64,000 nucleotides of DNA from a virus (IMGVR_UViG_3300028591_000072:96001-160000), one strand, 5' to 3'; positions 2,459-36,966 are shown, counted from the first letter of the stretch. Translations and numbers: made by a program. The notes: generated by a model from the letters alone, not told the origin.

Positions 2459-3385
2459 ATGAAATTAGATTTTAATGACATAAAATATTTGGTTAACGAA
2501 TGTGTTAAGAAAATCATATCTGAAAGAATTAGCGATAAAACATATCATTTTACGTCTTTTTCTTCTTGCATAAATATTCTTAAAAACAATGAGTTTAAAT
2601 TGACATTATCTTCAAATTCATCAGATGCGTATGACAATAAACGCTTATTCTATTTATCAACACAACGAGGTAGAAGCAAAGACATTGGATATGCAGGACA
2701 TTTGGGAAGTTGTATACGAATTGAAATAAATGGCAACGAAATATCACAAAAATATAATGGTAAGCCTATAGATTATTGGGGAACGATGGGAAAACAAGCA
2801 TATTACAAGCCAGAAAACGATTCAACATTTGGAAAAGGATTTACAAAGTCAAAAAAAACGCACCATAATTTCGAAATGGAAGACAGGATTTTCTCATATA
2901 CTCCAACAATTGAAAACGCATCTAAATATATTTCAAGAATTGATGTTTATTTGAGCGGACAAAGAAAAGATTTAGCCGAGAAAGAAAAAGATGATGCAAT
3001 TACAATTTTAGTACTATCAAAAAGAAATTCAATACCAGTTTTTGTATACACTGACATCAAAGATTTTAATTTTATGACAGATAATACCATAAATTCAGAA
3101 CTTGAGCAACTTTATAAAAATGATTTTCAAAGCAAGACAGAAGTTGGATTCGAAGATTATGATAGAATTAAAATATGGAGAGAAATGAAAAAAAAAGGAA
3201 CATTTGTTAATATCTTAGAACAATTGATGAATGTTTATACATTAGGTAAAATATACACCAAAAATAATGAAATATATAAAACGGTTTCATCACTATTTAA
3301 ACAATTTGGATTAGAAAAATATAAAAATGATTTAATTAAGGGAACTATATACCTGATGGCACAAAGTCAGTCTGATAAAGGCTGA
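2459..3385 (+). CDS. Putative ADP-ribosyltransferase-fold virion protein with shared leader; C-terminus cut by IS insertion
   Basis: Leader IKYLVNECVKKIISE; YHFTS...YLSTQR...EMEDRI pattern. The last ~14 codons are read from the IS inverted repeat starting at 3340. Confidence 0.5.
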   Translation: MKLDFNDIKYLVNECVKKIISERISDKTYHFTSFSSCINILKNNEFKLTLSSNSSDAYDNKRLFYLSTQRGRSKDIGYAGHLGSCIRIEINGNEISQKYNGKPIDYWGTMGKQAYYKPENDSTFGKGFTKSKKTHHNFEMEDRIFSYTPTIENASKYISRIDVYLSGQRKDLAEKEKDDAITILVLSKRNSIPVFVYTDIKDFNFMTDNTINSELEQLYKNDFQSKTEVGFEDYDRIKIWREMKKKGTFVNILEQLMNVYTLGKIYTKNNEIYKTVSSLFKQFGLEKYKNDLIKGTIYLMAQSQSDKG

Positions 3386-3392
3386 CTTTTTT
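3363..3392. terminator. Bidirectional intrinsic terminator (AAAGTCAG family)
   Basis: AAAGTCAGTC-TGATAAA-GGCTGACTTTTTT; the same stem occurs at 28381 and 36323. Confidence 0.75.
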
Positions 3393-3393
3393 G

Positions 3394-3777
3394 CTACGAA
3401 GCAAACTTTATCCCATTACCTTGTGAGAAATTGTAAAATGCTTCAATAAAGTAATCATAATCTTCTTCGGAAATGTTATTGGTTTCTTTAAGCATATTCA
3501 GCACCTCTACATCACCTATTTTTGTTACATCACCTATTGTTATAAATCCTCCAATTGCTGCAAAAGACAAAACCACAGACATCTTTTTTCTGTATGAAAT
3601 CGTATTATCTGTAATAAAGTCTGTAATATTCCACCATTTAGATGGCTTGCTGTTATTATCTTTTGCAATGATTATAGCATTTTTTGCAAAATGTTCCATC
3701 ACTTCAATTAAAAGGTTGCTTTCGCAATAAGTCGTTAGTTCATGTGCTGAACTTGGTGTAATGTATAGTATATCCAT
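3394..3777 (-). CDS. Hypothetical passenger protein
   Basis: ORF of 127 aa from the ATG at 3777. The track start at 3795 lies inside a TATCTTTGCA promoter box. Confidence 0.65.
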   Translation of the reverse strand: MDILYITPSSAHELTTYCESNLLIEVMEHFAKNAIIIAKDNNSKPSKWWNITDFITDNTISYRKKMSVVLSFAAIGGFITIGDVTKIGDVEVLNMLKETNNISEEDYDYFIEAFYNFSQGNGIKFAS

Positions 3778-3790
3778 ATCAACTTTTTCT

Positions 3791-3800
3791 TGCAAAGATA
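3791..3800 (-). promoter_or_regulatory. Bacteroidota-type -7 promoter box TATCTTTGCA
   Basis: Matches TAnnTTTG, 13 nt upstream of the ATG at 3777, back-to-back with the late motif at 3800-3808. Confidence 0.55.
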
Positions 3801-3825
3801 CTATTTATTTGAAAAATAGATATAA

Positions 3826-4110
3826 ATGAAGAAAGAATTTGAAGATATTATCAAGGAAAGTGTTAGAAGCGTTCTTTACGAAATGGATATTGTTCCTACA
3901 AACAAACATGGAGAAACAAATCTTGTAAAAAAGCAATCAATTAATGCATGGATAATGATATATCGCTTAATGGATAATATAAAAGTTGTAATGGATAATC
4001 AATATAAGTCAAAGAACGGTAACATTACAAACAAAGATGTAGATGGAATTATAGACTATTTATACAACAGTCTTCAAAATGTAACAAAGAACACGATTGG
4101 AGAAAAATAA
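3826..4110 (+). CDS. Hypothetical protein with shared leader (IS passenger)
   Basis: MKKEFEDIIKESVRSVLYE; late motif at 3800-3808. Confidence 0.75.
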   Translation: MKKEFEDIIKESVRSVLYEMDIVPTNKHGETNLVKKQSINAWIMIYRLMDNIKVVMDNQYKSKNGNITNKDVDGIIDYLYNSLQNVTKNTIGEK

Positions 4111-4135
4111 CCAAGAAATAAAAGAGAATAGAAAT

Positions 4136-4441
4136 ATGAACAAGAAACAAAGAATTAGAATAAACGAGAACCAATTAAGGCAAATCGTTAGCGAATCCGT
4201 GAAAAGAATTTTAAGAGAAAACGATGATTTCACACCACATGGATATATGACGAAATCAAATCTTGGAGGAACCGAAGTACAAATTAGCAATGATGGTTCT
4301 GCGGCAAGATTTAGAAACAATTACGGAACGCCAGACAAACCGACTGATTGGCTCGAAATTGAATTTGACGAAGAAGGCGTTGCTTATGTTACTTTACCAA
4401 ATGGTAGCCAAGAAAGGTTAGACAATTATATGAGATATTAA
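4136..4441 (+). CDS. Hypothetical protein with shared leader (IS passenger)
   Basis: MNKKQRIRINENQLRQIVSESVKRILRE. Start placed at 4136 by similarity to the N-terminus of 27838. Confidence 0.75.
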   Translation: MNKKQRIRINENQLRQIVSESVKRILRENDDFTPHGYMTKSNLGGTEVQISNDGSAARFRNNYGTPDKPTDWLEIEFDEEGVAYVTLPNGSQERLDNYMRY

Positions 4442-5373
4442 GCAGTACACTTAACAACTTTCACATCCTCGAATGTAACGACATTCAAGGCGTGTTCCAT
4501 AAGGGCAGCGAACCTTTCGCCGCCCTTCTTTTTTCTATTGTTGTAGCGAAAAACCGCCTCGTCAATGTAACGCTGGATATAGTAGCGTGAAACAAAGTGG
4601 TATGTGCCATAAACCATACGCTTGAATTGTCCCCAAAAGCCCTCAATCGTGTTGGTGTACTTGCGTCCCACGGCAAACTCCTTTTGGCTGTGGTTGACAA
4701 TCTCCCTGACATACCCGTTGTCATTCAGGTTGCAGTAAATGTTGGTTTCGTCAGTATAAACCACCGAACCAACCTTAATATGGCTCTTGATAATAGGCAT
4801 AAGCGTTGCGCTCCTTGTATCCTCAACCTTGATGGCAAACACATTGCCTTCCCTTTGTGCCATACCGAATACGGGTGTCTTTGTCTTGGTGCTTCTGCCT
4901 TGCGTACCCTCAACCTTCTTGCTTTCGTGCTTGTTGGTTTCCCTACCACCAACATAGGTTTCGTCAATCTCAACCTCGTCCTCAAGGATTGGTGCTGATT
5001 GGGTAAAGGTGGTGCGAATCTTGTGGAGCATAAACCAAGCGGTTTTTTGTGTCACACCCAAGTCAATGGCTGCTTGCTTGGATGAAACGCCCTTGGAGTG
5101 GGTTGACATAAGGAAAATGGCTCCAAACCACTTGTATAGGGGTAATTTGGTGTCTTGGAAGATGGTTTCCTGAAGGATTGAGAATGATGAGCCACACTCA
5201 CGGCACTTGAAGCGTCCGTCACCACGGCGATATGGGTGCATGCCACCGCAATACGGGCAAGCAACAAGTCCGTCAGGGTAGATTTGTTCCTCAATGAACT
5301 TTAGGCAGGTGGCTTTGTCCCGGAAATGGCGGAAGATTTGAGGAAGGGAGTTGAAATGGGCAAGGTTAATCAT
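4438..5373 (-). CDS. IS1595-family (ISXO2-like) DDE transposase
   Basis: Zinc ribbon CPYC...CREC, VEIDETYVGG, VYTDE, TNTIEGFW and RYIDE..FRYNNR; visibly more GC-rich than the phage backbone. Confidence 0.93.
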   Translation of the reverse strand: MINLAHFNSLPQIFRHFRDKATCLKFIEEQIYPDGLVACPYCGGMHPYRRGDGRFKCRECGSSFSILQETIFQDTKLPLYKWFGAIFLMSTHSKGVSSKQAAIDLGVTQKTAWFMLHKIRTTFTQSAPILEDEVEIDETYVGGRETNKHESKKVEGTQGRSTKTKTPVFGMAQREGNVFAIKVEDTRSATLMPIIKSHIKVGSVVYTDETNIYCNLNDNGYVREIVNHSQKEFAVGRKYTNTIEGFWGQFKRMVYGTYHFVSRYYIQRYIDEAVFRYNNRKKKGGERFAALMEHALNVVTFEDVKVVKCTA

Positions 5374-5603
5374 AGCAATTCAGGTTGGTTACACTTATTT
5401 ATAGTGTAGAATATACAATTTTTCAACCTGAAAAACCAGTTTTTTAACTGAAAATCAGAAATTTCTTCCTAATTTTGTGCCATCATGTACATAGTTCCCA
5501 AAAATTTAAGACGTGACAAAGCTTCGCAACGATAAGCGTTTAGAATGCTGAAATTAAGTGGCTTGTTTTTCTTTTTTATTCTAAATAATTTCATAATTCA
5601 ATT

Positions 5604-5822
5604 TTAATTTGTTGAGCAAGTTACAACCCAATCACCATAATTTGGCGGCATTGGATAAGTTCTTGTTGGCTTAAAAATGTTTGGCTCTAACTGGTCATAA
5701 TAAGGAAATGTTTGTTGTTTCTTATCGTTTAAATCACTAAAATCTTTCATTGCAAGCATTTCTGCAAGTGTTCTTTTGTCACATTGCATGTATCTTTCTA
5801 CTTTTTCTTCAAATGTTTCCAT
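5604..5822 (-). CDS. Hypothetical protein
   Basis: 72-aa ORF preceded by TTGACT-N17-TATTAT (5867-5839). Confidence 0.65.
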   Translation of the reverse strand: METFEEKVERYMQCDKRTLAEMLAMKDFSDLNDKKQQTFPYYDQLEPNIFKPTRTYPMPPNYGDWVVTCSTN

Positions 5823-5947
5823 AATTAATATGTTTTATATAATATACAAAAAAATATTTAAAGTCAAAAACTATTTATACATAGTGTATTATGTTCACTT
5901 TAAACATAATAATATTATATTATTAAATAACAATTAAATTAATTAGC

Positions 5948-8900
5948 ATGGCAAATAACAATCAAACTATATTTCAAAGATTAACTGATGTATTTAGGGG
6001 TTCAAATAGCAATTCAGTTCCTAAAGCAGTACAAACGTCAAAAAGTTTTGATGAAAGGAACGAAGTGCTTTTTTCGACAAATGACAGGGCTGAATATGAA
6101 AGAAAATTAGAAACATTTAAACAGCAAAAATATTTAGCATATCAATGGAAAAGGGCAGGCGCTGACAATTCCATGGAAAGTTTGGCCGGATATAATGCCG
6201 TTAAATTAATGTATCGTGACGTTGACCTTATGGATGGGACTTGTGAAATTGGAAGTGCTCTTGATATTATATCAGAAGAGGCTTGTTTGGATGGTGATAC
6301 ACAAATAAAATTATTAAACGGAAAAGTTTTTACAATCAAAGAATTGTATAATATGCGTTGTAAAGATTTTTGGGTTTATTCTGTTGACGAAAATGGAATT
6401 TGTATGCCATCGCACGTTGATAGTGTTATTTATAAGGGTAAAAAAAACATTATAGAAATAACGCTTGACGATGATACTGTGATAAAAATTACGCCAGACC
6501 ATAAATTAATGTTGTCAAATTGTGAATGGAAAGAGGCATCTGATTTGGTTGAAGGTGATTCTTTAATGTCAATATATGACTCAAAGGATAATTTAGGATA
6601 TGAACAAATCATATCTTCTACCGAGTATAAAAAAAGGCCAACACATCGTGTTGTTGCTGAAAACGTTTTAATTGATGAAAAAACGATTTTATTGGAAAAA
6701 AACACAAATAACCAAAAAATAGTTATTCATCATAACACATTTAATAAATCGAACAATGACCCATCTGCATTGACATATATGTATTGGGATGAACATCAAA
6801 AATTACACACAGATTTAAATAAAAAAAGATGGGAAAATAAAGAATGGGCTGATAAGATGAAAAAAATATTTTCAAAAACAGCCAAAAAAACATGGAAAGA
6901 ACAAAGAAATAATTTCATAGAAAAATTTAAAATCGCTCAAAAAAAACGTATTGAAAAAATGAGCGAAGAAGAACGTATTAAATATTTCGGGAGAAAAGGG
7001 AAAAATAATGGTATGTTTGGTATACATAGATATGGCAAAAGCAATCCAAACTATAATAAAACAGTAAGCAGAATAAATAATATAAATGAAAAAGAATACA
7101 TTGATACAATTTTAAATAACGGTGGAAGGAAAGAATTAAAAAATAAGTTTAATTTGACAAAAAATGACGTTATTGAATATAATAGGTATTTATGTAAAAA
7201 ATACAAAATAAATAATATTTTTAATTTAAAATTTAACGATGAAATCTTTACGAAAATTAAAGAAATGATTATAAATAACCCATCTTTAACTCTATCTGAA
7301 ATTTCAAAAAATATTAACATATCAAAAAACACAATTAGCACAATATTAAAAAAACACGATACATCATTTAAAGATATACAAATAAAAAGTGACGTTTGGA
7401 AATATTATAAAGTTGACGAAAAAGAATATATTAATACGATTGCTTATTTAGACACTTATAATTTTAATGAAAAGTTATCAAATAAATTTAATTTAACAAA
7501 AAAACAGATTTCAAGGTTAAATAAAGAAATATTAAAAAAATACGATTTAAAAAGAATTGACCATTTAAAATATGTATTTAACGAAAATTATAAAATTTCA
7601 AAAATTAAGAAACTTATTTCCTATGGAAAAAATAAAAGTGAAATCTTAAAAGAATTATCATTATCAAATTTTCATCTTTTACAAATATGTAAAGAGAACG
7701 GATATAAAGATTATCAAGATTTAAAAAAATCATTATATAACCACAGAATTAAATCAATAAGAAAAATAGAAGAAGAAAGCGATGTATTTGATTTATTGAA
7801 TTCATCAACAAACAATTGTTTTGCAATAAAATGTAACAATGGACATATAATATCGCATAATTGCCCAATTAATTCTGAAGGATTAATGATTAACATATAT
7901 TCAAAGTCAAAAAGAACAAAGTCAATACTAGAAGATTTATTTGTAAACAGGTTACACATTTATACTGAGTTACCAATGATTGCCCGTCACGTAACAAAAT
8001 ACGGAAATACATTTATGCTTTTGAATATAGACAAGTCAAATGGCGTAATGGGGTGGATGATGATGCCTGTTTATGAGGTTGATAGGGAAGAAAACGGATA
8101 TGGGTCAACATACACACAAACAGTTCCACGTCAAACAACTGACATAAAACCTGACGAAATAAGGTTTGTATGGAAAGGGCACAACGGAGATAATGCTTAT
8201 TTCAATTGGCAAGTGGCACATTTTAGATTGCTAAACGATTCGTTTTTCCTACCTTATGGCGTATCAATGCTTCATAAAGCACGTAGAGCGTGGAGAATGT
8301 GGTCAATGATGGAAGATGCAATGCTTATTTGGAGATTAGATAAGGCAATTGAAAGACGTGTTTATAAAGTATATGTTGGCGCAATTGACGATGCTGACGT
8401 TCCTGCATACATAAACGAAATTGCAAATAATTTTAAAAGAACACAAATAATAGACCCAGTTACGGGTCAGGTTGATTTAAGAAAAAACTTTTTAGACGTT
8501 TCAAGCGACTATTTCATTCCTGTAAGAAGAGAGGATGCCCCAAATCCAATTGAAACATTACAGGCGGCAAACAGCCAAGTTCAAATGGAGGACATTGAAT
8601 ACATGCAAAATAAAATTTTTGCAGCAATGAGAGTTCCAAAAACTTTTTTAAATTTCCAAGAAGCGCAAGGTAAAGGCCAGAATCTTTCATTTATGGATGT
8701 CAGGTTTGCAAGAATGATTGTAAGAATACAACAATTTTTGTTAATGGAACTTAACAAAATAGCAATGATACATCTATACTTAATGGGGCTTTCAGATGAA
8801 ATAGGAAACTTTTCATTAACTCTAAACAGCCCATCAACAGTAATAGAAGGACAAGAACTTGAAGATTTACAAAAACGTCTAACAGCAATGCAAACAGCGC

Positions 8901-9637
8901 TTGCTGACCCAGGAACCGGTATTCCAATGATGTCAATGCATAGAGCACTTAAAAAGATAATGAAAATGAGTGACGAAGAAATAAGGGACATGTTCAATGA
9001 AATCCGTTTGGAAAAAGCAATGGCTGCTGAATTAGCTGCAACGCCTAACATAATAAAACATTCAGGAATGTTTGACGTAACAGATAGAATATATGGGGAC
9101 TATGCGGCAATGCATGGAGGTGGAACGCAGCAACAACAAGATAGCGAAAATGACGGAATGGGCGGCGGAGGAGGTGGCCCAATTGGCGGTGGTTTAGGCG
9201 GCGGAGATTTTGACATTGGAGAACCAGGTTCTGATACAGAAGGTGAACTTGGAGGCGAAGAAGGAGAAACCGACATGGAAAGTGCGCCAAATGCCGACAA
9301 CGGAACGCCATTAAATGAGCAAAAATTAAATACGACAAAATCATTTACAAAAAAATATTTTGAAAACATTAACGAAAACAAGTCACAATTAAAAAAAGCG
9401 CCAACTTCTTATTTTGACTTATATATGAATCTAATATCAGAAAGTCAAAAAGAAGAAGATGAAGTTGATGATGTTATTGATTACGACATTAAAAATAAAA
9501 CTTTACAAGAAAACATTAAAAGCATTTGCGATAAAATAGATTCTCTTATTGATGAGGATGAAATAGCACGTGAAAATTTAATAAATGAGGCCATATCCGA
9601 TTTAAATACGATTTCAGGTGAAACACTTAATGAATAA
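5948..9637 (+). CDS. Portal protein (T4 gp20-like) containing an intein
   Basis: Motifs ALDIISEEA, VAHFRL, GVSMLHKARR, MEDAMLIWR...ERRVYKVYVG, DYFIPVR and DIEYMQNKIFAAMRVPK; late motif at 5869-5879. Confidence 0.92.
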   Translation: MANNNQTIFQRLTDVFRGSNSNSVPKAVQTSKSFDERNEVLFSTNDRAEYERKLETFKQQKYLAYQWKRAGADNSMESLAGYNAVKLMYRDVDLMDGTCEIGSALDIISEEACLDGDTQIKLLNGKVFTIKELYNMRCKDFWVYSVDENGICMPSHVDSVIYKGKKNIIEITLDDDTVIKITPDHKLMLSNCEWKEASDLVEGDSLMSIYDSKDNLGYEQIISSTEYKKRPTHRVVAENVLIDEKTILLEKNTNNQKIVIHHNTFNKSNNDPSALTYMYWDEHQKLHTDLNKKRWENKEWADKMKKIFSKTAKKTWKEQRNNFIEKFKIAQKKRIEKMSEEERIKYFGRKGKNNGMFGIHRYGKSNPNYNKTVSRINNINEKEYIDTILNNGGRKELKNKFNLTKNDVIEYNRYLCKKYKINNIFNLKFNDEIFTKIKEMIINNPSLTLSEISKNINISKNTISTILKKHDTSFKDIQIKSDVWKYYKVDEKEYINTIAYLDTYNFNEKLSNKFNLTKKQISRLNKEILKKYDLKRIDHLKYVFNENYKISKIKKLISYGKNKSEILKELSLSNFHLLQICKENGYKDYQDLKKSLYNHRIKSIRKIEEESDVFDLLNSSTNNCFAIKCNNGHIISHNCPINSEGLMINIYSKSKRTKSILEDLFVNRLHIYTELPMIARHVTKYGNTFMLLNIDKSNGVMGWMMMPVYEVDREENGYGSTYTQTVPRQTTDIKPDEIRFVWKGHNGDNAYFNWQVAHFRLLNDSFFLPYGVSMLHKARRAWRMWSMMEDAMLIWRLDKAIERRVYKVYVGAIDDADVPAYINEIANNFKRTQIIDPVTGQVDLRKNFLDVSSDYFIPVRREDAPNPIETLQAANSQVQMEDIEYMQNKIFAAMRVPKTFLNFQEAQGKGQNLSFMDVRFARMIVRIQQFLLMELNKIAMIHLYLMGLSDEIGNFSLTLNSPSTVIEGQELEDLQKRLTAMQTALADPGTGIPMMSMHRALKKIMKMSDEEIRDMFNEIRLEKAMAAELAATPNIIKHSGMFDVTDRIYGDYAAMHGGGTQQQQDSENDGMGGGGGGPIGGGLGGGDFDIGEPGSDTEGELGGEEGETDMESAPNADNGTPLNEQKLNTTKSFTKKYFENINENKSQLKKAPTSYFDLYMNLISESQKEEDEVDDVIDYDIKNKTLQENIKSICDKIDSLIDEDEIARENLINEAISDLNTISGETLNE
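6284..7861 (+). mobile_element. Intein (526 aa) with HNH endonuclease inside the portal gene
   Basis: Begins CLDGDTQI (C113), has block B ITPDH, ends VFDL...ISHN/C (C639). Internal HRVVAE...IHHNTFNKSNNDPSAL HNH motif and NUMOD3-like GKNNGMFG/GKSNPNY. Confidence 0.92.
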
Positions 9638-9666
9638 TAAACTATTTATAAAGAAAAAAGTTTAAA

Positions 9667-10578
9667 ATGGAAAATGCAATAAATTCTTTCAAGACAATAA
9701 AAGAAGTAGAAAATTATAAAAACGAAATAATTAAAGAGTGTAATGAAAGAATCAATTTTATAAAAATGATTCAAAAGGCAGATTATCTGTCAAATAGCCA
9801 ATTTGGGTACATAAAAGAATGTTTTGAGTCAATTTCTCCTGAATTATTTACGTCAAAAGGCGGAAAAAAAATATTAAACAAATATACATCTGTAATAAAA
9901 GAAAGCAATAATCTTTCAACAATGCATAGTATATGCGAAGCAATAAGAAAATCAGGAAAAGGAACGGATTCTTCGTTTGTTATTAATAAAATATTAGAAA
10001 GCAACAGTTCAAATATAGACAGGTCAACCTTGAAAAATGAAATAAAGTCATTAGGAATGATTTTGGCTGAAGGCTATTTGTATCTTGGAGAAAAAGCAAA
10101 TAATTTATTACCAAAAGAAAACAAGAAACTATATTCTGCAATTGGATATATTACAGAGAATAAGAGCAATTTGAAAAATATATCAGAATATACAAATGCA
10201 ATTGAAGTAATCAAGGAAAACATAGAAAACAAAGAAAAGGAAACAAACGTTTTTGAATCAAGAAATTTGGATGACTTAGCAAATGAATTGTTGGAAGAAT
10301 TCAACAAAAAATATTCAGAAACATTAAACGAAGAAGAAGCAAAGGTACTAAAGGAAATAGCTTCAAGCGAAAATCGTGAAGAAATATTTGAGAAATACAA
10401 GTCATTGTGTGCCGAATCAATTTTAGTCGCAAAGAAGTCATTTGAAGAAAAAGGTGATGAAAATTCAAGCAAAAGATTATCTTCAGTTCTCGAACAAGTG
10501 AATGGAAAAAAATATTCATTGGATACCGTTGGAGAAGATATTTGCAATTTAATAGAACTTTCAAATATTTTTGAATGA
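9667..10578 (+). CDS. Hypothetical head-associated protein
   Basis: Helical Glu/Lys-rich ORF directly after the portal; late motif at 9640-9650. Confidence 0.6.
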   Translation: MENAINSFKTIKEVENYKNEIIKECNERINFIKMIQKADYLSNSQFGYIKECFESISPELFTSKGGKKILNKYTSVIKESNNLSTMHSICEAIRKSGKGTDSSFVINKILESNSSNIDRSTLKNEIKSLGMILAEGYLYLGEKANNLLPKENKKLYSAIGYITENKSNLKNISEYTNAIEVIKENIENKEKETNVFESRNLDDLANELLEEFNKKYSETLNEEEAKVLKEIASSENREEIFEKYKSLCAESILVAKKSFEEKGDENSSKRLSSVLEQVNGKKYSLDTVGEDICNLIELSNIFE

Positions 10579-11303
10579 TGAAAAAGGTTGTTATTACAGA
10601 AGAGCAATTAAGTCATCTTGTCATGCAAGAACAATATGAAATTTTTCTTGCGCAACAGCTCAACGAATCATTGGATTTTAATTCCATAAAGAAAAAGATA
10701 AAAAGGGCGTTATTGGCCGGCGCAACGGCAGCAGCAATACTTGGTGCAGTTGCAAGGATGAACATTAACGACAATCAAAAATTAGAATTGGAACAAATGG
10801 TTGAATTGTTTTCAGACAGCATACAGCATACAGACACAATACATGAACAAAAAGTCCAAGCATGTAAAGAATATATGGAATGGGCAATGAAAAACCAAGG
10901 ATATTCTTTGGAAACAACGCAATTAACGCCAGAAGCGTTGGTTACTGCATGTGAAGAAAATAATTTTAGTTTACCATTTACCATGGCAATAGCAAACTTG
11001 GAATCTTGTTTCGGACAAACTCCAAGGTCAAAAAGGACAAACAGCGTGTTTTCTGTTGGCTCTTATGACAACGGAAAAAACGTATGCACATATTCAACCC
11101 CAGATGAAAGTATTGCTCCTTTTATTAACCTGATAAAGACAGATTATCTTCAAGATGGAGAAAAAACTATTGGGGATTTGCTGAAAACAAACGGGTTTGT
11201 AAACATGAATGGACATAGATATGCTTCGAACAAAAAATATGAGGGTCAGGTACAAAGCATAATGAACAGAATCGTTAAAATGTATCCTATACTTAATTCA
11301 TAA
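10575..11303 (+). CDS. Glucosaminidase/lysozyme-like protein with shared leader
   Basis: AIANLESCFG...NSVFSV...RYASNKKY (GH73-like); leader MKKVVITEEQLSHLVMQE...LNES. Confidence 0.7.
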   Translation: MMKKVVITEEQLSHLVMQEQYEIFLAQQLNESLDFNSIKKKIKRALLAGATAAAILGAVARMNINDNQKLELEQMVELFSDSIQHTDTIHEQKVQACKEYMEWAMKNQGYSLETTQLTPEALVTACEENNFSLPFTMAIANLESCFGQTPRSKRTNSVFSVGSYDNGKNVCTYSTPDESIAPFINLIKTDYLQDGEKTIGDLLKTNGFVNMNGHRYASNKKYEGQVQSIMNRIVKMYPILNS

Positions 11304-11308: not shown

Positions 11309-11339
11309 AAAAATGGCGGTGCTTAAACATCGCCATTTT
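11309..11339. terminator. Bidirectional terminator between convergent genes
   Basis: AAAATGGCGGTG-CTTAAA-CATCGCCATTTT. Confidence 0.7.
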
Positions 11340-12219
11340 CTTTTTCAATATCACCATTCAAATATCGTCTAAGAATCATTTTTATTTTTGCATCTTTAAT
11401 TTTTTCTTCTTTTTCTTTAATTTTTGCTGTATATAACGCATATGCTTTTCCAATTTTATCAATTAAATATTGATATGACCTTTTTGTTATCATTTTTAAT
11501 GTTGGAAGAACACGCTCTATGTCACAATGTAAGATGTCATGACCAACTAACCAATACGCTGCAATAAAAAAATATGAATTGTTCATATCATATTTTGATA
11601 ATGTTTTTTGTGAATTTTTCAATAATGTGTATAAGTCATTTATTTCGTTATCTTGTATAAATTCAATATAATTTTCATATTTTTTATTTTTTTTCATTGC
11701 AGAAGAAAATGTCCCGTTAACAAATGCACTTATTTCATTTCTGTTACTATAATATAAAAGTTCACAAATTGTGCTAATAACAGGGTTTCTATTTCGTATT
11801 CCTTGATATATGGCATCATAAACGTCCGTATGTATTGTTCTGCCGGCGTTTTTGCATTCCCAATAATGACTGCATTCATGCATTATAGTGTCACTAACAT
11901 CGAATGTATTCATAACTCCACCAATGAAATAAAGTCCTAAATATATTGTGTTTGTCTCATATGAATATCCATCATAACGCCCAGTTTCATTTATCCAAGT
12001 TAATGCATCTTCGGGTTTATTAAATTCTTTATAGACAAAATCAACATTAACATCAGATAGTTCTGTTTTTACATTGAAAATTTTTTCTGTTATGCCATTA
12101 TTCAAATAGTCATACACTTTTTTTTCAATTAAATCAGATAGTTTAACTACTTCATCGGCGATTCCTAACTCTTCATTAATCGCATTTTCTATTTGTTCTT
12201 CAAGTATTTTGTTTCTCAT
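11323..12219 (-). CDS. Zincin-like metallopeptidase-fold protein with leader-like N-terminus
   Basis: TIMHECSHYWE (HExxH) with a downstream NEISAF; N-terminal ILEEQIENAINEELG. Confidence 0.55.
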   Translation of the reverse strand: MRNKILEEQIENAINEELGIADEVVKLSDLIEKKVYDYLNNGITEKIFNVKTELSDVNVDFVYKEFNKPEDALTWINETGRYDGYSYETNTIYLGLYFIGGVMNTFDVSDTIMHECSHYWECKNAGRTIHTDVYDAIYQGIRNRNPVISTICELLYYSNRNEISAFVNGTFSSAMKKNKKYENYIEFIQDNEINDLYTLLKNSQKTLSKYDMNNSYFFIAAYWLVGHDILHCDIERVLPTLKMITKRSYQYLIDKIGKAYALYTAKIKEKEEKIKDAKIKMILRRYLNGDIEKENGDV

Positions 12220-18461: not shown

Positions 18462-18463
18462 AA

Positions 18464-27366: not shown

Positions 27367-27801
27367 ATGCGTTATATAACGGAAAAACAATTGAACAAAA
27401 TCATAACAGAAAGCACAATTAAGGTGTTAAAGGAATATTCAGAAAATGAAGGTGTTGCCGGAGCAATTGGTGCAGGACTTGGATGGCTTGCAAATAAAGC
27501 AAGGAATGGTGTTAATAACTTTAGCCAAAACTTCCAACAGCAATATAATGGAAACACTCAACAACAACAAGGAACAGTACAAACAGGGACTCCAACAATT
27601 GAACAATTGGCACAATATTTACAAAATTTAAATATGCGTATTTCAAATTTGGAATCTAATATGACAAATGCATCAAATAATGCACAACAATCCGCAACAG
27701 CTACTGCGAATCCAGCACGAAAAAGGACAAAAAAAAGTACAACTACCAACCAACAGCCGCCTACAGCACCAACCACTCAGGCAAAAACAACACAGCAATA
27801 A
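27367..27801 (+). CDS. Gln/Thr-rich protein with shared leader
   Basis: MRYITEKQLNKIITESTIKVLKEYSE; late motif at 27341-27350. Confidence 0.75.
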   Translation: MRYITEKQLNKIITESTIKVLKEYSENEGVAGAIGAGLGWLANKARNGVNNFSQNFQQQYNGNTQQQQGTVQTGTPTIEQLAQYLQNLNMRISNLESNMTNASNNAQQSATATANPARKRTKKSTTTNQQPPTAPTTQAKTTQQ

Positions 27802-27837: not shown

Positions 27838-28359
27838 ATGAACAAGAAACAAGTTATAAGAATAAGTGAACAACAACTAAGGCAAATAGTTTCCGAATGC
27901 ACAAAAAAAATATTATCGGAAAATGAATCCAATGAAGAAGACATGGAAGAAGGCTTCTTTGGAAATATGAAGGATAAACTTGGTGCAGTAAAGGACACAT
28001 TCAAAAAGGGTGGAAATTACGATGCCCATTTTAATAATCGCCAATTACAAAGAGCAAGGGGAGACATTGAAAGTCTTAAAGGAAAATACGGTGTACAAAA
28101 CGGTCAAAACGGAGCACAATACGTAAAGCAAAATTCACAAGCGGCAATAGACCAAATTAATGCAAAATATGACCAAAAAATCCAAGCATTAGAACAGCAA
28201 AGGCAATCAGAAATTGCTAAAACAACAGGCAAAACACAAAAACAATGGGATAAATACCAATCAAAGAAAGGTGCTCTTGACCAAACAAGAAATCAAGCAT
28301 ATCAAGGAAGACGTACAGCAATGAACGCAAATCCATATGCTGATTTTGCTGAAGAATAA
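27838..28359 (+). CDS. Gln/Lys-rich helical protein with shared leader
   Basis: MNKKQVIRISEQQLRQIVSECTKKILSE. Confidence 0.75.
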   Translation: MNKKQVIRISEQQLRQIVSECTKKILSENESNEEDMEEGFFGNMKDKLGAVKDTFKKGGNYDAHFNNRQLQRARGDIESLKGKYGVQNGQNGAQYVKQNSQAAIDQINAKYDQKIQALEQQRQSEIAKTTGKTQKQWDKYQSKKGALDQTRNQAYQGRRTAMNANPYADFAEE

Positions 28360-28653: not shown

Positions 28654-28683
28654 TGTTATTTTATTTTAAATTAAACATACGAA

Positions 28684-29884: not shown

Positions 29885-29892
29885 AATTAAAA

Positions 29893-30066: not shown

Positions 30067-30173
30067 TTTATATGTTTTCTTTGCTTTAAACATACAAAAA
30101 CTTCCAGAAAAAAACAAAAAAAAACCTCGAAGATTTCTCAATCAACGAGGCAAAAACTAAAAACACTATGACA

Positions 30174-31406: not shown

Positions 31407-31431
31407 TTTTTTCTGTTTGTTTTGTTATTAA

Positions 31432-32127
31432 TTAAGACAATAAATCATTAACATTTAAATTATTTTCATTCGCATATTCTTTTGTTATGTTTTTGCAATT
31501 TTCGCTTAATGTTGAAGTAAAAGCCAAATCTTTTGCCTCTCCAGTTAATGTTGAACATCTATAACTTGTAACAGATGCATTTATTAGGTCATAATTTGAC
31601 ATATAACTTGCTTTTGAAGAATACATTTTGTTTGCAAATCCAAGTGAATTTGCATCTTTTGCGTCTCTTACATCGCTTCCCATGTAAACAAAAGTCCAAT
31701 TATATTCATCTTCCATTTCTTTAATCATTTCCTTTACTTTTGAAGCGCTGTATTCTCTTGATGAATTTTCCTCACCGTCAGTCATTACAACAACGACATT
31801 TTTTTCAGGCCTTTCATCTTCATCTATATCGTTAATCCAATTCTTGATATTGTTTATTGCTGTTCCAACAGCATCAAATAACGCCGTACAACCGCCAGGT
31901 CTATAGTCATCATCAATATAATCAACTTCTCTAACATCAATTCCACGATACACTTCTGTTACATTGCTATTGAATTTATAATATGAAATAGAACAACTTC
32001 CGTCTTTATTTTCACGCTGTTCGTCAATTACACGTTTAAAACCGCCTATTACATCTGTTTCTATTCCTGTCATACTTCCTGACTCATCTATTACAAAAAC
32101 AATATTTACAAAACCGTTTTTACTCAT
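31432..32127 (-). CDS. von Willebrand factor A domain protein
   Basis: MIDAS motif DESGSM, TALFDA and MTDGEEN. Confidence 0.9.
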   Translation of the reverse strand: MSKNGFVNIVFVIDESGSMTGIETDVIGGFKRVIDEQRENKDGSCSISYYKFNSNVTEVYRGIDVREVDYIDDDYRPGGCTALFDAVGTAINNIKNWINDIDEDERPEKNVVVVMTDGEENSSREYSASKVKEMIKEMEDEYNWTFVYMGSDVRDAKDANSLGFANKMYSSKASYMSNYDLINASVTSYRCSTLTGEAKDLAFTSTLSENCKNITKEYANENNLNVNDLLS

Positions 32128-33277
32128 TTTCTTTTATTATTTTTAGTAAATTATTTTTATCCGTTATAACATCATAAGGAAAATCAATTATAAAATTTGA
32201 ATAATATAGAAGTTTAACATTGTTTTTATCACAAAGTTCTTTTTTTATTCTATCTCTTTCTTGTATTTGTTTTATTTTTTCTTCTGTATAAAAAGATTTT
32301 TTATTTCTAGAATGAAAAAAATGCTGAATTCCTTGACATTCTATTCCAATATTATACTTAGGAATAAAAAAGTCAATAGATTGTTTTCCAAGCCAATCAA
32401 ATTTTTTCCATCTTTCATGCTCTATATTATTAAGTGTTAATAAATTTTCAATTTCTTTTTCTAATTTACTTTCTTTACAATTTGGGCAGCCATCATTATT
32501 TAAATGTCTATTTGGAGTTTGCCAAAATTCACCGTGTTCAGGACAAATTATACAAACTTTTGTATGATTATTTGTATATTCAACCTTTGAATAATCATAT
32601 TTTTCTCCGTGAACTTTTTTTGCGTCATTTATGAATTCTTCTATGTTTTTTGTCCTGTTTTTATTTTTCATATAATTTCCGCATTTTGGACATCCTTGTC
32701 CAAAAATATGCATATATGGTGCCTGAAAAAAATCTCCATGAATTTTACATGTAATACAAACTTTAGTATAATTATCTTTATATATTGTTTTAGAATAGTC
32801 ATATTTGTTATCATGAATTTCATTTGATTTTTTTATGAAATATTCATTATCATATATTTTTTTACCTTTTCTTTTATTAGAGCATTTTTTACATTCATGC
32901 CCACATAAATGATGTGAAGGTGTTTGCCAAAATTCGCCATGCTCAGGACAAATAATACAAACCTTTGTGTGGTTGTTTATATATTCAACTTTTGAATAAT
33001 CATATTTATTACCATAAAGTTCGATAGATTCTTTTATAAAGTCATCAGTTGTTTTTGATTTACATTTTGATTTTTTTTCATTAGAGCATTTTTTACATCC
33101 GTAGCCATTTAAATGTAAATTTGGTGTTTGCCAAAATTCTCCGTGTATTGGACATATTATGCAGACTTTAGTGTTCTTGTTTAAATACTTAACTTTTGAG
33201 TAATCATATTTATTGCCGTGTATATATTTTGATTTTTCAATAAATTCTTCTTTAGTTAATTTTTTCATAAAAGACAT
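32120..33277 (-). CDS. Putative homing endonuclease (four zinc repeats plus Vsr-like domain)
   Basis: YDYSK...KVCIICPEHGEFWQTP repeats and DFFIPKYNIGIECQGIQH; late motif at 33284-33293. Confidence 0.8.
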   Translation of the reverse strand: MSFMKKLTKEEFIEKSKYIHGNKYDYSKVKYLNKNTKVCIICPIHGEFWQTPNLHLNGYGCKKCSNEKKSKCKSKTTDDFIKESIELYGNKYDYSKVEYINNHTKVCIICPEHGEFWQTPSHHLCGHECKKCSNKRKGKKIYDNEYFIKKSNEIHDNKYDYSKTIYKDNYTKVCITCKIHGDFFQAPYMHIFGQGCPKCGNYMKNKNRTKNIEEFINDAKKVHGEKYDYSKVEYTNNHTKVCIICPEHGEFWQTPNRHLNNDGCPNCKESKLEKEIENLLTLNNIEHERWKKFDWLGKQSIDFFIPKYNIGIECQGIQHFFHSRNKKSFYTEEKIKQIQERDRIKKELCDKNNVKLLYYSNFIIDFPYDVITDKNNLLKIIKENE

Positions 33278-33422
33278 TTTATATATAAATAGTAAAAAAC
33301 ATAAAAAATTAGCAAAAACAAAATAAAAATAAATATGTTTTTGTGCTATATTTAATCATTTTTAATTGTTTTTATTTAAAACTTAAAATACAAACTATTT
33401 ATAAACGTATAATTGTAATTTT

Positions 33423-33794
33423 ATGAAAAAGGAATATACTGATTTTATATGTGCATTGCATGGCTATACAATAAGAGTCAAAGAAATACATTGGAATACC
33501 ACAAATAATTCTGAACATTTATTATGTGATGAAATAAATGATTGCATTTTTGAATGTGAAGACGAATTTACAGAATGTTGCATGGGAATTGAGGGAAAAC
33601 ATTTTCAAATTGGGAAATTATTACCAATATTACCAAATGCAGAAAGTCTTTTGCCAATGCTAAAAGAACTTGAAGAAGATGTTTTATCAATGAAAAAAAA
33701 GTGTAATGACACAACAGAAAGCGGACTTACGAATGTATTAGACGATATGATGCAAAATGTTAATAAATTCAAATATAGAGCAACCCAAAAATGA
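33423..33794 (+). CDS. Ferritin/Dps-like four-helix protein
   Basis: KEIHWNT...EHLLCDE...DEFTE...NVLDD...NKFKY; late motif at 33393-33403. Confidence 0.6.
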   Translation: MKKEYTDFICALHGYTIRVKEIHWNTTNNSEHLLCDEINDCIFECEDEFTECCMGIEGKHFQIGKLLPILPNAESLLPMLKELEEDVLSMKKKCNDTTESGLTNVLDDMMQNVNKFKYRATQK

Positions 33795-34435
33795 GCAAAA
33801 AAACAATAATATTAACAGATAAACAACTTGACGAAATTGCAAATGGTGTAAGTAGTTATTTGGATACGTTGGGAACAACTCCTGATATGCCAGAAGATTT
33901 TGCAAATCAGACAAGTTTGGGCTCTAATGGATACGGAGAAGCTTATACTGACCCTGAAACATCAGATGACTTTGGAAAGCGCCACTACCCTGAATATAGA
34001 TGGGCATTGGGTCCAAGGACATTTGGAAAAGGTCCGTCAAATATTCATGAAATGTCAAAAAAAGATTGGGAAAACAAATATATTTTAAATGAAGAAGAAA
34101 AAAACGGGCAGCATTTATCAAATATTAATTTCGGCAATTCAGACAAACAATATTCAGATGATGCGATGACACAATATCAATACAGAAAAAGAAAAGCAGC
34201 AAGACAAGCATTAAATGGTTCAACACCAGAGGAAAAAATGAAAGGTCTCCAATCATTACAAAGAATAAATAACAACAACGGAAAAAGTAGAGAAGTCGCT
34301 GAAAAACAATTTAATGCAGCGAAGGCTTCTGCAAGAGTTTTGCCAAAAAAGATAAAATCAGCGCCAAAAACAGGAATTGGAACAACACATGACAAAAAAT
34401 TAAAAAACGGAATAATAACAACAGCAAAAGAATAA
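33791..34435 (+). CDS. Hypothetical protein with shared-leader variant
   Basis: MSKKTIILTDKQLDEI. Confidence 0.65.
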   Translation: MSKKTIILTDKQLDEIANGVSSYLDTLGTTPDMPEDFANQTSLGSNGYGEAYTDPETSDDFGKRHYPEYRWALGPRTFGKGPSNIHEMSKKDWENKYILNEEEKNGQHLSNINFGNSDKQYSDDAMTQYQYRKRKAARQALNGSTPEEKMKGLQSLQRINNNNGKSREVAEKQFNAAKASARVLPKKIKSAPKTGIGTTHDKKLKNGIITTAKE

Positions 34436-34455
34436 AATCAAAAAACTAAAATATT

Positions 34456-34830
34456 ATGCAAACTTGTTTAGAAAAAAAGGGTATTGAATCAAGACAAAAT
34501 CTATTACCAAGAAATGATTATACAAGGGTTGAAGAATACTCACAAACACACCCTGATGCATTGGCAACAGGAGACCCACAAGGAAAAGGAACAGGACATG
34601 GCGGACACACACATTCAATTCCAGATTGTACAGCACCTTCAACAATAAACTATTCTAATTTTGATACAAACGGCGGAGGTGGCTCATACGACATAAACGG
34701 AAGAAATGGCGTTGGTGGTAGGATTTTTTGCCAAAACATTTCAATGTACAACGAAGCAAATAGTTATTGTAATGTTTCAATTGATACAACAGCAAATGTT
34801 GCTGACGGACAAATTGTTATTAAGGCATAA
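34456..34830 (+). CDS. Gly-rich hypothetical (probable structural) protein
   Basis: 124-aa ORF in the late operon. Confidence 0.6.
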   Translation: MQTCLEKKGIESRQNLLPRNDYTRVEEYSQTHPDALATGDPQGKGTGHGGHTHSIPDCTAPSTINYSNFDTNGGGGSYDINGRNGVGGRIFCQNISMYNEANSYCNVSIDTTANVADGQIVIKA

Positions 34831-35687
34831 TGAAAAAAAGACTAATACATATAAACGAGACCGTTTCATTATCTAAAAAAAGATTCGGAAAAGAAACTTG
34901 GCAATTAAGCAAAGAAGAAAAAATCCAATTTGCAATTGAAAATTGCCGTAGAATCCGAATTACTTATGACGATAAAAAAGGCGGGAAAGGTAAAAATACA
35001 AGATACCTTTTGCCATTGGTATATGGTATTACAAAAAACGGAAAAAGTGCAATTAGGGCCTTTCAGACTTATGGCTCAACAAAAAGAGGTGTTCCCAAAT
35101 ACAAACTTTTCCTAACAGACAACATAGGACAAGTTGATATCGGACGTGTAAAATATTATGATTATGAACAAGAATTATTAAGCACGGGATTTAACGATTC
35201 CGGAGATAAAGGATTCTCTGACATTTATTCGATAACCCCACTTGCAAGAAATTTCAATGTGGCAAATCTGTCAAATCAAAATCAACCAATAGATTCAAAC
35301 CCAGTTCAAAAATCAGATATTGATAAAGGAGAAAAGCCACAAGCAACGCCAACACATCAAACACGGCCAACGCAAACAATAAATGTTGCACAAAAAAATA
35401 TTGACAATTTAGGACAAAAAAGTTACTTTCAAAATAAAGTTGAGGCACCAGATACTGAGCCTGTTTCAAAAGGCGAAATCGAAAACGGGGAAAATATACC
35501 GCAGCCAACACAGGTAAGCCAATCACCAATTGATATTGGTGATGAAACGGAACCAGTAGAAAAATCAGATATCGAACCTCAAATTAATACAGATAATGTT
35601 TTATCTAAGTCTTATAAAGATATGATGGACAGAATGGATAATCTTTATAACGATGAAGATGAAGAAAATGATGAAGATAATTTATAA
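34830..35687 (+). CDS. WYL-like domain protein with a low-complexity tail
   Basis: AIENCRRIRITY...RYLLPLVYG...IRAFQ...YKLFLTDNI. Confidence 0.55.
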   Translation: MKKRLIHINETVSLSKKRFGKETWQLSKEEKIQFAIENCRRIRITYDDKKGGKGKNTRYLLPLVYGITKNGKSAIRAFQTYGSTKRGVPKYKLFLTDNIGQVDIGRVKYYDYEQELLSTGFNDSGDKGFSDIYSITPLARNFNVANLSNQNQPIDSNPVQKSDIDKGEKPQATPTHQTRPTQTINVAQKNIDNLGQKSYFQNKVEAPDTEPVSKGEIENGENIPQPTQVSQSPIDIGDETEPVEKSDIEPQINTDNVLSKSYKDMMDRMDNLYNDEDEENDEDNL

Positions 35688-35692
35688 TTAAA

Positions 35693-36301
35693 ATGGCAGT
35701 TTCAAAACAACAATTAGCACAAATTATAGGAAAAGCAAGGGATTTATGTAATCCTGAAGGTGACAGGCTTGTTGAATCATATAAAGGTGATGGCAATTTC
35801 GATAGAAATGACCCAGACCCATCTTCATATGACGATTATTCTCAATTTGATAGAATGTACCTTAATGAAGAAGAAGATTATCAGCCACAAAAAAGAAATG
35901 TTCAAACAAAAGACATTAGATATAATCAGCAAACGGCAGCAAATAGCAAAATGCCTGACAAAATCAAACAATCAATGCTTAATGAAGTCATAGATGTAAC
36001 TGCATTGGATAATCAGTCTGTTTTATCAGGAATGGATATACCTGGCGTAAACAGAAAACCGCAACAAAGCAGAAGGCCCGTTAATGAACAACAATATCAG
36101 ACACAAGGCGGAAACATTGACTATTCAATAATAAAAGCAATTGTAAATGAATGCTTGAATGATTATTTCTCAAGACAACCATTGAATGAAAGCGCATCAA
36201 TTAGCACAATTGGACTAAAGCCAGGCGTTATAAAAGTGGTTGATAGTAAAGGAAATGTATTTTCAGGTAAACTTGAAAAAATAGGAAATACAAAAAATTA
36301 A
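35693..36301 (+). CDS. Hypothetical protein with an internal leader-like segment
   Basis: IDYSIIKAIVNECLNDY...LNES. Confidence 0.6.
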   Translation: MAVSKQQLAQIIGKARDLCNPEGDRLVESYKGDGNFDRNDPDPSSYDDYSQFDRMYLNEEEDYQPQKRNVQTKDIRYNQQTAANSKMPDKIKQSMLNEVIDVTALDNQSVLSGMDIPGVNRKPQQSRRPVNEQQYQTQGGNIDYSIIKAIVNECLNDYFSRQPLNESASISTIGLKPGVIKVVDSKGNVFSGKLEKIGNTKN

Positions 36302-36322
36302 CGAAATAATGAATTTATAAAG

Positions 36323-36353
36323 AAAAGTCAGTCATAAACGGCTGACTTTTTTT
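36323..36353 (+). terminator. Terminator (AAAGTCAG family)
   Basis: AAAAGTCAGTC-ATAAAC-GGCTGACTTTTTTT. Confidence 0.75.
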
Positions 36354-36390
36354 GTTTATAGCAAACTATTTATAAAGAAAAGTTTTAGAA

Positions 36391-36966
36391 ATGAGTAAAA
36401 AACAAATTATTAAAATAAACGAAAGTCAATTAAAACAAGTTGTCACTGAAATTGTGAAAAAAATGTTGAAAGAAGAAACTTCAGACAGTTGGCAACATCA
36501 AGACTTTGATTTTAGAAACGCATGTGAAAGGCTTTGTGGAGAAATTGAATTAGGTAATTACGATAATAGAATAACAGATGCCGAATGGGTTGAAGACATG
36601 GAAAATAAATACGAAAATGATAATAATGGCACAGTTGGTAATATACGTAAGGCTATAAATGATAGATTATCCATAATTGCAAATGATTCATCAGGCAAAA
36701 GCCAGTATATGAGCAATGAAATAGCAAAAAGAATAGTATCTGAATCAATGAAAAATGTATTGAAAGAAGAACAAGAAAATACATATGAAACATTAATAGA
36801 AATTATGAATAAACTTGATATGATTATGCATAGCGGATTTATACCATTTTCTTCGCCAAGTCCTTCATCAACAGAAAAAAAAGTTGCTGATTCAATAAGG
36901 CAAGCAAATGAATTATTAAAACAAGCCGCCATTGGTTGTAAACAATTAGGATATGGGATTAATTAA
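36391..36966 (+). CDS. Protein with two copies of the shared leader
   Basis: MSKKQIIKINESQLKQVVTEIVKKMLKEE and internal IAKRIVSESMKNVLKEE; late motif at 36364-36374. Confidence 0.75.
   Translation: MSKKQIIKINESQLKQVVTEIVKKMLKEETSDSWQHQDFDFRNACERLCGEIELGNYDNRITDAEWVEDMENKYENDNNGTVGNIRKAINDRLSIIANDSSGKSQYMSNEIAKRIVSESMKNVLKEEQENTYETLIEIMNKLDMIMHSGFIPFSSPSPSSTEKKVADSIRQANELLKQAAIGCKQLGYGIN

Follow-up and report, generated by a model that had tools for sequence, protein, structure and literature searches.

The DNA considered here is a window of 64,000 nucleotides, corresponding to bases 96,001-160,000 of the IMG/VR viral record IMGVR_UViG_3300028591_000072 (302,581 bp, linear, 32% G+C, 82% complete according to CheckV), and the element in question is a short peptide, hereafter called the leader, that opens several protein-coding genes of this window. 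By its sequence, the source record is an uncultured jumbo phage of the T4 superfamily, and megablast found no close GenBank phage at the DNA level. A first-pass annotation had proposed that one leader is shared by the open reading frames (ORFs) beginning at 4136, 27367, 27838, and 36391, with an internal copy in the last of these. Translation and comparison with a hidden Markov model (HMM) confirmed the shared leader, and the internal copy proved to be a half-copy (residues 113-127, independent E value [iE] of 3e-4). The strongly supported copies are given below in window coordinates, where h stands for a hydrophobic residue.

4136..4219, + strand: full leader of 28 amino acids (aa), MNKKQRIRINENQLRQIVSESVKRILRE, of ORF 4136-4441; HMM 54-64 bits; sites INE11, VSE20, and LRE28
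27367..27435, + strand: short-headed leader of 23 aa, MRYITEKQLNKIITESTIKVLKE, of ORF 27367-27801; HMM 29-41 bits; h-x-E at residues 6, 15, and 23
27838..27921, + strand: full leader of 28 aa of ORF 27838-28359; HMM 44-64 bits; orthologs at 59-84% identity
36391..36474, + strand: full leader of 28 aa of ORF 36391-36966; HMM 41-55 bits
36715..36768, + strand: internal half-leader, NEIAKRIVSESMKNVLKE, between domains A and B of ORF 36391-36966; iE 3e-4 to 4e-3

The cargo of ORF 4136-4441 is a 73-aa acidic domain, which the full-length homolog P0123 also carries behind a leader, and ORF 27367-27801 continues with a Gly/Ala-rich segment followed by a Q/N/T-rich low-complexity region. The cargo of ORF 27838-28359 is an elongated, all-helical basic protein; in its AlphaFold2 (AF2) model, residues 1-10 are extended, residues 11-28 form a helix, and a break at residues 29-32, after the last Glu, precedes the long helices. 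ORF 36391-36966 is laid out as leader, domain A, half-leader, and domain B. In three homologs (P0215, P0065, and P0216) the leader and domain A are retained, with a different second module or none, and domain B stands right behind an N-terminal leader in an 89-aa ORF adjoining the prohead protease gene of genome G020.

A first HMM, built from the four core leaders (4136, 27367, 27838, and 36391) and searched against all stop-to-stop frames of the genome, regained the core leaders at E values of 1e-11 to 1e-18 and detected four more strong copies beyond the window, at genome positions 39519, 41121, 52508, and 54654, for a total of eight. A broader HMM drew on 233 copies from public proteins. 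Applied to the N-terminal 45 residues of 347 predicted genes, it gave scores of at least 10 bits for 12 genes and for none in 20 shuffled genome-equivalents; the genome total stands at eight strong and four weaker copies. Among 1.84 billion cluster representatives, a profile search returned 3,156 clusters at an E value of ≤1e-3 and 120 at ≤1e-10. The HMM scan that had been proposed as a check was thus positive, and a chance or compositional artifact is ruled out by the shuffle controls together with the 120 public clusters. Among the leaders, identity by codon position was 0.645 (position 1), 0.71 (position 2), and 0.475 (position 3), and 42% of the identical residues were encoded by different codons. 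Third positions are thus free to vary, which indicates selection on the peptide rather than on the RNA or DNA.

The leader has the consensus KKQTIKLNESQLRKIVAESVKKVLKE, of about 27 residues, and its anatomy was assessed from 240 copies in 149 cluster representatives, the best public proteins. Three Glu residues are nearly invariant (E9, 100%; E18, 97%; E26, 98%), with Asp occurring once in about 690 such positions. The residue two places before each Glu is L or I at E9 (53 and 41%), V or I at E18 (69 and 30%), and L24 at E26 (91%); at E9 and E18, P1' is usually S, N, or A, and there is no conservation beyond E26. The gp21 protease of T4 cleaves behind L/I-X-E and fails to process sites with Asp at P1 (PMC9026906). 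Judged by these conserved positions, the leader is a series of three tandem (L/I/V)-x-E copies of the T4 gp21 cleavage motif that ends at the last of them. Three to four h-x-E sites fall within residues 6-34 of each of the seven full-length N-terminal leaders of the genome, a set that comprises all strong copies but the one within the ORF at genome 39519. At 100 degrees per residue, the three Glu residues fall at 180, 0, and 80 degrees by our own calculation; they do not lie on one helix face, so a single binding face fails to explain them. The leaders are basic (net charge of +2 to +6) and not hydrophobic, which argues against a signal peptide. No significant Pfam or PHROG match was found for the leader, and a full-text literature search with four leader peptides found no paper.

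The best 149 proteins show the leader to be a modular element. Their 240 copies comprise 115 N-terminal, 110 internal, and 15 C-terminal ones, 115 of the 149 proteins open with the motif, and successive copies are spaced by a median of 100 residues. The 237 segments outside the leaders fell into 181 BLAST families, 151 of them singletons, and almost none of the cargo segments were recognized in a Pfam search. Modules are swapped at leaders across relatives, and a single genome may contain up to 25 copies.

The head genes of this phage provide the setting in which such a leader can be considered. A Peptidase_S77 (gp21-type) prohead protease is encoded at genome 79.5-81.3 kb (PF03420, 61 bits) and a Gp23-type major capsid protein (MCP) at genome 83.2-85.2 kb (PF07068, 208 bits), and between the two lies an acidic, scaffold-like gene of 568 aa (net charge of -60, pI 4.4). 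The MCP cleavage site is kept in alignment, with LTE65/A66 of T4 gp23 corresponding to LSE/A here and to IYE/A in a relative, the E and A being invariant. The portal gene lies inside the window.

5948..9637, + strand: portal gene, T4 gp20-type, with an HNH-containing insertion; phrog_213 portal match at 2.8e-48 plus an HNH match; tblastn matches to T4-like portals

The nearest relatives of the portal are uncultured huge phages. The leader ORFs at 2459-4441 come shortly before the portal gene, and a glucosaminidase ORF lies about 0.9 kb downstream of it, with one ORF between. The portal ORF itself is 1,229 aa long, about twice the length of T4 gp20, with the portal match at residues 724-1026 and an HNH endonuclease match at residues 212-300; the insertion may be an intein or a fused homing nuclease. 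The S77 gene (genome 79516-81339; L006:3516-5339) is an ORF of 607 aa whose conserved ...AIGE/LNHP... segment is split by an insert of about 310 residues. Inspected by eye, the insert has Cys as its first residue and ...TKN at its end, with Cys next after it, and it contains LAGLIDADG-like blocks, so that it looks like an intein within the head protease. S77 frames of 600-611 aa in G001, G013, and G015 suggest the same insert, and an intact gene of 229-250 aa is present in G020, G002, and others.

Leaders are found repeatedly beside the protease gene. In G001, a 179-aa homolog of ORF 27838-28359 is encoded immediately downstream of the protease gene, and in G013 a homolog of the same ORF lies 3 kb from it; in G020, the protease neighbor consists of a leader and domain B of ORF 36391-36966. 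In G015, two ORFs with N-terminal leaders follow the protease gene and two with C-terminal leaders precede it, the latter occupying the place of T4 genes 67 and 68, and an HExxH homolog and the scaffold gene follow. On contig L007, internal leaders occur in both genes that flank the protease. When leader-to-protease distances were tested jointly, the p value was 0.005, a figure that assumes independent genomes and is driven by three of them. S77 was present in 10 of the 15 motif-bearing IMG/VR records, in addition to G000, G001, and G002, and in 5 of the 6 motif-bearing records that are at least 90% complete; the partial records lacking S77 also lack Gp23, which indicates that they simply miss the head module. 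Sites of the form (L/I)-x-E are depleted in the cargo, with an observed-to-expected ratio of 0.93 (95% confidence interval, 0.80-1.05) versus 1.14 (1.08-1.20) in the other proteins of this phage, and the (L/I)-x-D, -Q, and -K controls are not depleted, as would be expected of proteins that must survive a protease cutting after L/I-x-E.

The distribution of the leader was examined among phages and prokaryotes. Among the nearest relatives of the portal, the leader HMM found none in Flavobacterium phage immuto, Microcystis phage Mel-JY01, or LR756511 and gave weak matches in LR756508 (E values of 1.5e-3 to 9e-3). Across 50,697 GenBank phage records, megablast and tblastn gave no match to the region, to ORF 27838-28359, or to a 34-aa leader, a result weakened by the low-complexity filter and the short query. 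A search of 185,579 prokaryote species genomes with a degenerate DNA pattern yielded only 10 matching stretches, nine of them on labeled contigs of metagenome-assembled genomes (MAGs) assigned to rumen or gut Bacteroidales or Prevotella and one on a binned Anaerotignum contig; the isolate genomes in that set had none. The first-pass annotation had raised the prospect that an HMM might find nonphage genes equally often; the motif was confined to phage-like contigs. The MAG labels point weakly to a Bacteroidales or Prevotella host. CACYXI010000001.1 (L080/L083; 286,648 bp), contig 1 of the rumen "Bacteroidales" MAG RUG12352, contains the leader motif twice as well as S77; because S77 is present, this contig is most likely a jumbo phage genome that was binned into a bacterial MAG. 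The contigs of P0008, P0030, P0014, and P0041 were too short for informative gene context.

Shorter or variant forms of the leader had also been claimed for six further sites in the window, which differ in how well they are supported.

2459..2524, + strand: shortened leader of 22 aa, ending IISE22, of ORF 2459-3385; 15.6 bits, E 2e-4 (N-terminal scan)
3826..3882, + strand: second-half-only leader variant, MKKEFEDIIKESVRSVLYE, of ORF 3826-4110; 14.3 bits, E 5e-4
10575..10667, + strand: start of the glucosaminidase ORF 10575-11303, possibly a diverged leader, with a Gly/Ala-rich hydrophobic segment behind it; HMM 1.7 bits, no statistical support
12169..12219, - strand: N-terminus of the HExxH protein, ORF 11323-12219; two h-x-E sites 9 residues apart; no HMM match
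33791..33835, + strand: first-half-only leader-like N-terminus, MSKKTIILTDKQLDE, of ORF 33791-34435; 3.6 bits, no statistical support
36116..36166, + strand: internal segment, IDYSIIKAIVNECLNDY, of ORF 35693-36301, like the second half of the leader; no HMM match, no statistical support

The claim therefore holds for the first two sites and not, on HMM scores, for the other four. Orthologs of ORF 2459-3385 have clearer leaders that end at an invariant Glu (E22), and P0123 combines a half-leader, a spacer, a full leader, and the cargo homologous to that of 4136 in a single ORF. The remaining four may plausibly be diverged forms of the leader, as relatives suggest: the G007 ortholog of the glucosaminidase opens with MKIILNEQQFNRLVTEEVMISVLNES, which is recognizably leader-like, the G007 ortholog of ORF 33791-34435 (37% identity overall) retains MRKTLIITEKQLDE, and the G007 and G014 orthologs of ORF 35693-36301 conserve the internal segment. 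A homolog of the HExxH protein (E value of 4e-8, HExxH aligned) is encoded within the G015 head-gene module, between the leader ORFs and the scaffold gene, and the N-terminal pattern is common to both proteins. An N-terminal helix of the scaffold (MKSLLSEAVKTALRES), a core-like acidic protein (MDSIVESVVKSILKED), and the head-module ORF p157 (KRIILTRKQLNEVLKEE) resemble the leader by eye, scored below 4 bits with the HMM, and were not counted.

Several observations concern the sequence around these genes. At 4102-4110, only a frame change at a run of A separates ORFs 3826-4110 and 4136-4441 (GAAAAATAA; GAAAATAAC at the paralogous site). One A fewer would join the two ORFs in the layout of P0123, which is 60% identical over the 4136 part; the frame change may reflect slippage, a genuine frameshift, or an error in sequencing. 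The leader genes at 4136 and at genome 39519 have 33 nt before the ATG in common (window 4097-4136; genome 39486-39518, L005:2486-2518), GAAAATAACCAAGAAATAAAAGAGAATAGAAAT, which are open in the leader frame (encoding NNQEIKENRN) and contain stops in the other two. This same peptide serves as a linker inside fused ORFs of other phages (e.g., P0039, P0053, and P0059), and at genome 38895-39926 it joins a 208-aa upstream domain to the leader in one ORF of 343 aa. The ORF ending at window 334 (window 17-334; genome 95528-96334) opens with MNDDEIKKIIKEELGVSNEV, like the N-termini of the HExxH protein (...INEELGIADEV) and its G015 homolog, and N-termini of this type may make up a second, smaller family of shared N-termini.

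The sequences behind the leaders and their variants are unrelated, as the first-pass annotation had stated, and comprise a glucosaminidase (31.4 bits), an ADP-ribosyltransferase (ART) fold (Z 11.5), a conserved HExxH protein, and low-complexity or helical proteins. The AF2 model of ORF 2459-3385 (mean predicted local distance difference test score [pLDDT] of 75.8) matched yeast Tpt1 (7yw4) with a VIA Z of 11.5 and a root mean square deviation of 2.5 over 114 residues and matched DarT with a VIA Z of 8-9; the fold spans residues ~19-206, right after the leader, and the leader helix (residues 5-17) lies outside the cargo domain. Nearly all of the top Foldseek rows were ART-fold proteins, but at E values of 3.6e-3 or weaker. 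On the strength of its model, this cargo is a predicted member of the ADP-ribosyltransferase superfamily fold. Among orthologs, H30 is invariant, as are T68 and R70 of S67-T68-x-R70, in which S67 is nearly so, and there is a run E139-x-E141-D-R; by sequence position only, these residues are compatible with a triad of the H-Y-E or R-S-E type. The protein is 308 aa long versus 356-390 aa in most orthologs and is without their conserved C-terminal block of ~55 residues (...ESC.LL.NT.N.PIRKLN...NFDDL).

ORF 10575-11303 matched the glucosaminidase family PF01832 at residues 123-233 (31.4 bits versus a cutoff of 30.2; E value of 3.5e-7) and a PHROG endolysin family at 1.5e-6. About 45 residues from its start is a Gly/Ala-rich, weakly hydrophobic segment, ALLAGATAAAILGAVA, which is conserved in the G007 ortholog and could be an endolysin anchor of the signal-arrest-release type; similar Gly/Ala-rich stretches stand behind the leaders of ORF 27367-27801 and of the protease-adjacent ORF in G001. 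The HExxH motif is conserved between ORF 11323-12219 and its homolog.

Most of the leader genes had been described as lying downstream of a late motif. The 9-mer ACTATTTAT is indeed overrepresented, with 21 sites in the window versus 1.85 expected (e.g., at 349, 3800, 5870, 9641, 13956, 27342, 33394, 36365, 40028 on the - strand, and 42923), on both strands and nearly always 20-50 nt upstream of a start codon, and it precedes the MCP gene (beyond the window), the portal gene, and several leader genes. The same 9-mer stands before an HNH nuclease gene, a gene next to PolB fragments, and others, for which reason its use as a marker of late timing was rejected. ACTATTTAT is probably the general promoter element of this phage.

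Taken together, these results somewhat favor the interpretation that the leader is a portable targeting and processing sequence of the prohead core that is cut off by the protease, a longer functional analog of the T4 capsid-targeting sequence (CTS), used by a clade of uncultured rumen and gut jumbo phages of the T4 superfamily. According to this proposal, the extended segment (KKQTIKL) and the basic amphipathic helix would dock the tagged protein on the very acidic scaffold or core during prohead assembly. The S77 (gp21-type) protease would then cleave the leader behind at least one of its three (L/I/V)-x-E sites, with the final cut after L-x-E26 freeing the cargo within the head. In proteins of several modules, the internal and C-terminal copies would provide additional junctions for docking and cutting. 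We only infer docking, cleavage, presence in the virion, and injection with the DNA. More tentatively, and with considerable doubt, rumen and gut jumbo phages of this clade, probably with Prevotella or other Bacteroidales hosts, could use a 27-residue "triple-cut" label at N-termini, between modules, and at C-termini to load hundreds of cargo families, enzymes included, that are released at the junctions and delivered with the DNA.

The analogy with T4 capsid targeting, on which the first-pass annotation had built its proposal, is favored by indirect evidence, namely the head genes, the MCP cut site, the three h-x-E sites, the adjacency to the protease gene, the depletion of cut sites in the cargo, and the restriction to phage-like contigs. 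Several points weigh against it. Nearly half of the copies (110 of 240) are internal and a further 15 are C-terminal, which goes beyond a simple N-terminal propeptide, and in the source genome 19 kb separate the protease gene from the nearest strong leader. The depletion of cut sites is a modest effect, with cargo and control sets drawn from different genomes, and the promoter-like ACTATTTAT is not specific to late genes. The leader HMM gave only trivial matches, of <3 bits, to T4 gp67, gp68, gp21, gp22, gp23, and gp24; with no sequence similarity to these T4 head proteins and, by eye, only the h-x-E ending in common with the T4 CTS, the leader would be an analog rather than a member of the T4 CTS sequence family. 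One genome, G019 (73 kb, 41% G+C, 92% complete according to CheckV), has a leader protein and no S77 or Gp23 match, the leader bears a weak resemblance to the strand-helix start of ribbon-helix-helix (RHH) antitoxins (PF25734), and the tagged proteins are known here from genes of uncultured phages alone. The tagged protein of G019 (L073, G019:52001-66000) has a near-consensus leader, MKRITRLTESDLRRIVKESVKKVLKE, and the surrounding genes are small accessory ones and one that is resolvase-like; this genome could be explained by horizontal acquisition of a tagged gene or by overestimated completeness.

The same observations can be read in other ways. An unlikely reading, though a closer rival than an RHH-like module, is that the tagged proteins are disposable parts of the prohead core or scaffold, with the motif serving as an assembly helix and multi-cut "degron" through which S77 would shred them so that they exit before DNA packaging, nothing being injected. 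Three cut motifs per leader and copies ~100 residues apart would give small pieces, leader ORFs stand where T4 has its core genes 67, 68, and 22, several cargos resemble scaffolds in being of low complexity or made of long helices, and T4 core proteins are cut to fragments and expelled (PMC9026906). For at least some of the tagged proteins, such a fate is at odds with the enzyme folds of some cargos (the ART fold and, on a weaker leader variant, the glucosaminidase), with the (L/I)-x-E depletion, which suggests that the cargo must survive the protease, and with 181 unrelated families, which far exceed scaffolding needs.

A capsid role would be absent altogether if the motif were a general strand-plus-helix module for oligomerization or DNA binding, like the first half of an RHH protein of the RelB/CopG type, in paralogous regulators or antitoxin-like proteins, a possibility that seems quite improbable. 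PF25734 (RelB_like_antitoxin) matched 4 of the 149 representatives (best E value of 1.2e-5) and, over profile positions 2-25, ORF 36391-36966 at E values of 0.01-0.05; the extended residues 1-10 and following helix of the model agree with such a fold, G019 has the tag without T4-type head genes, and the pattern KK-x-h-x-L-x-E-x-x-L looks by eye like RHH N-termini. The weak PF25734 match is what keeps such an oligomerization module among the rivals. However, the PF25734 scores of the source genome lie under the Pfam cutoff (the best being 14.4 versus 27 bits), sequence conservation stops at E26, with no sign of a second helix in it, and the models break after the helix. Nor would an RHH origin readily account for internal and C-terminal copies, up to 25 per genome, for three invariant Glu residues with no Asp that lie off a single helix face, for the tie to S77 jumbo phages in which the motif often adjoins the protease gene, or for its absence from isolate prokaryote genomes.

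That the tag is instead the recognition site of another enzyme or machine (for modification, secretion, or localization in the infected cell), or a translation or recombination feature of gene 5' ends as the 33 nt shared by 4136 and genome 39519 might suggest, is very improbable, since protease, scaffold, and MCP are the only conserved neighbors in the contexts examined, the leader is not hydrophobic and no signal peptide, and synonymous sites vary freely, indicating peptide-level selection.

If the targeting and processing interpretation is correct, sequence alone could tell which proteins these phages inject into Bacteroidales cells, among them the ART-fold enzyme and possibly the glucosaminidase, and proteins of two or three modules would be explained as polyproteins cut by the protease. 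The leader would also be a naturally evolved tag with which foreign proteins could be packaged into phages of the Bacteroidales host group. It is useful as an annotation marker because Pfam and PHROGs give no significant match.

To our knowledge, T4 and its close relatives are the only phages with proven capsid-targeting tags, which there load a small number of internal proteins directed against host defenses. Of the known systems, RHH proteins of the PF25734 type share with the leader a short strand followed by a helix and the pattern h-x-L-x-E-x-x-L, with weak profile matches, and differ in the sub-cutoff scores, the end of sequence conservation after the first helix here, and a context of head genes rather than toxin-antitoxin pairs. 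The propeptides of phiKZ and SPN3US, which are cut after S/A/G-x-E by the S77-related gp175 and gp245 (PMC9026906, PMC5694885, PMC10052503), likewise belong to jumbo phages with many head-internal proteins and are cut after Glu; propeptides of giant phages also hold redundant cut sites (PMC9026906), as the leader does. In contrast to the leader, however, they have no single shared tag and a small residue at P3 instead of L/I/V, and the phage described here has an MCP and portal of T4 type, not of phiKZ type.

The T4 system itself offers the nearest parallel. Its CTS is a peptide of 10 residues, MKTYQEFIAE, with one cut site, and gp21 removes the propeptides of IPI, IPII, IPIII, and Alt (Mullaney and Black 1996; PMC9026906, PMC3012670); reviews have already proposed that T4-like phages can use the CTS to load a variety of proteins. 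Like the CTS, the leader is an N-terminal tag on otherwise unrelated proteins that ends in L/I-x-E, and the phage encodes a gp21-type S77 protease, an acidic scaffold, and a Gp23 MCP whose cleavage site is the same. The ART-fold cargo recalls Alt, whose propeptides at both ends match the N- and C-terminal copies seen here. The two differ in that T4 packaging is experimentally proven, whereas the leader is known from genes alone, and by eye they have only the h-x-E ending in common. The leader is also longer, at ~27 residues with three cut motifs, is often repeated inside proteins, and heads thousands of clusters compared with a handful in T4. What is new is the tag itself, with its three tandem cut-site motifs and its repeats inside proteins, and the scale on which it occurs; the principle is the one known from T4.

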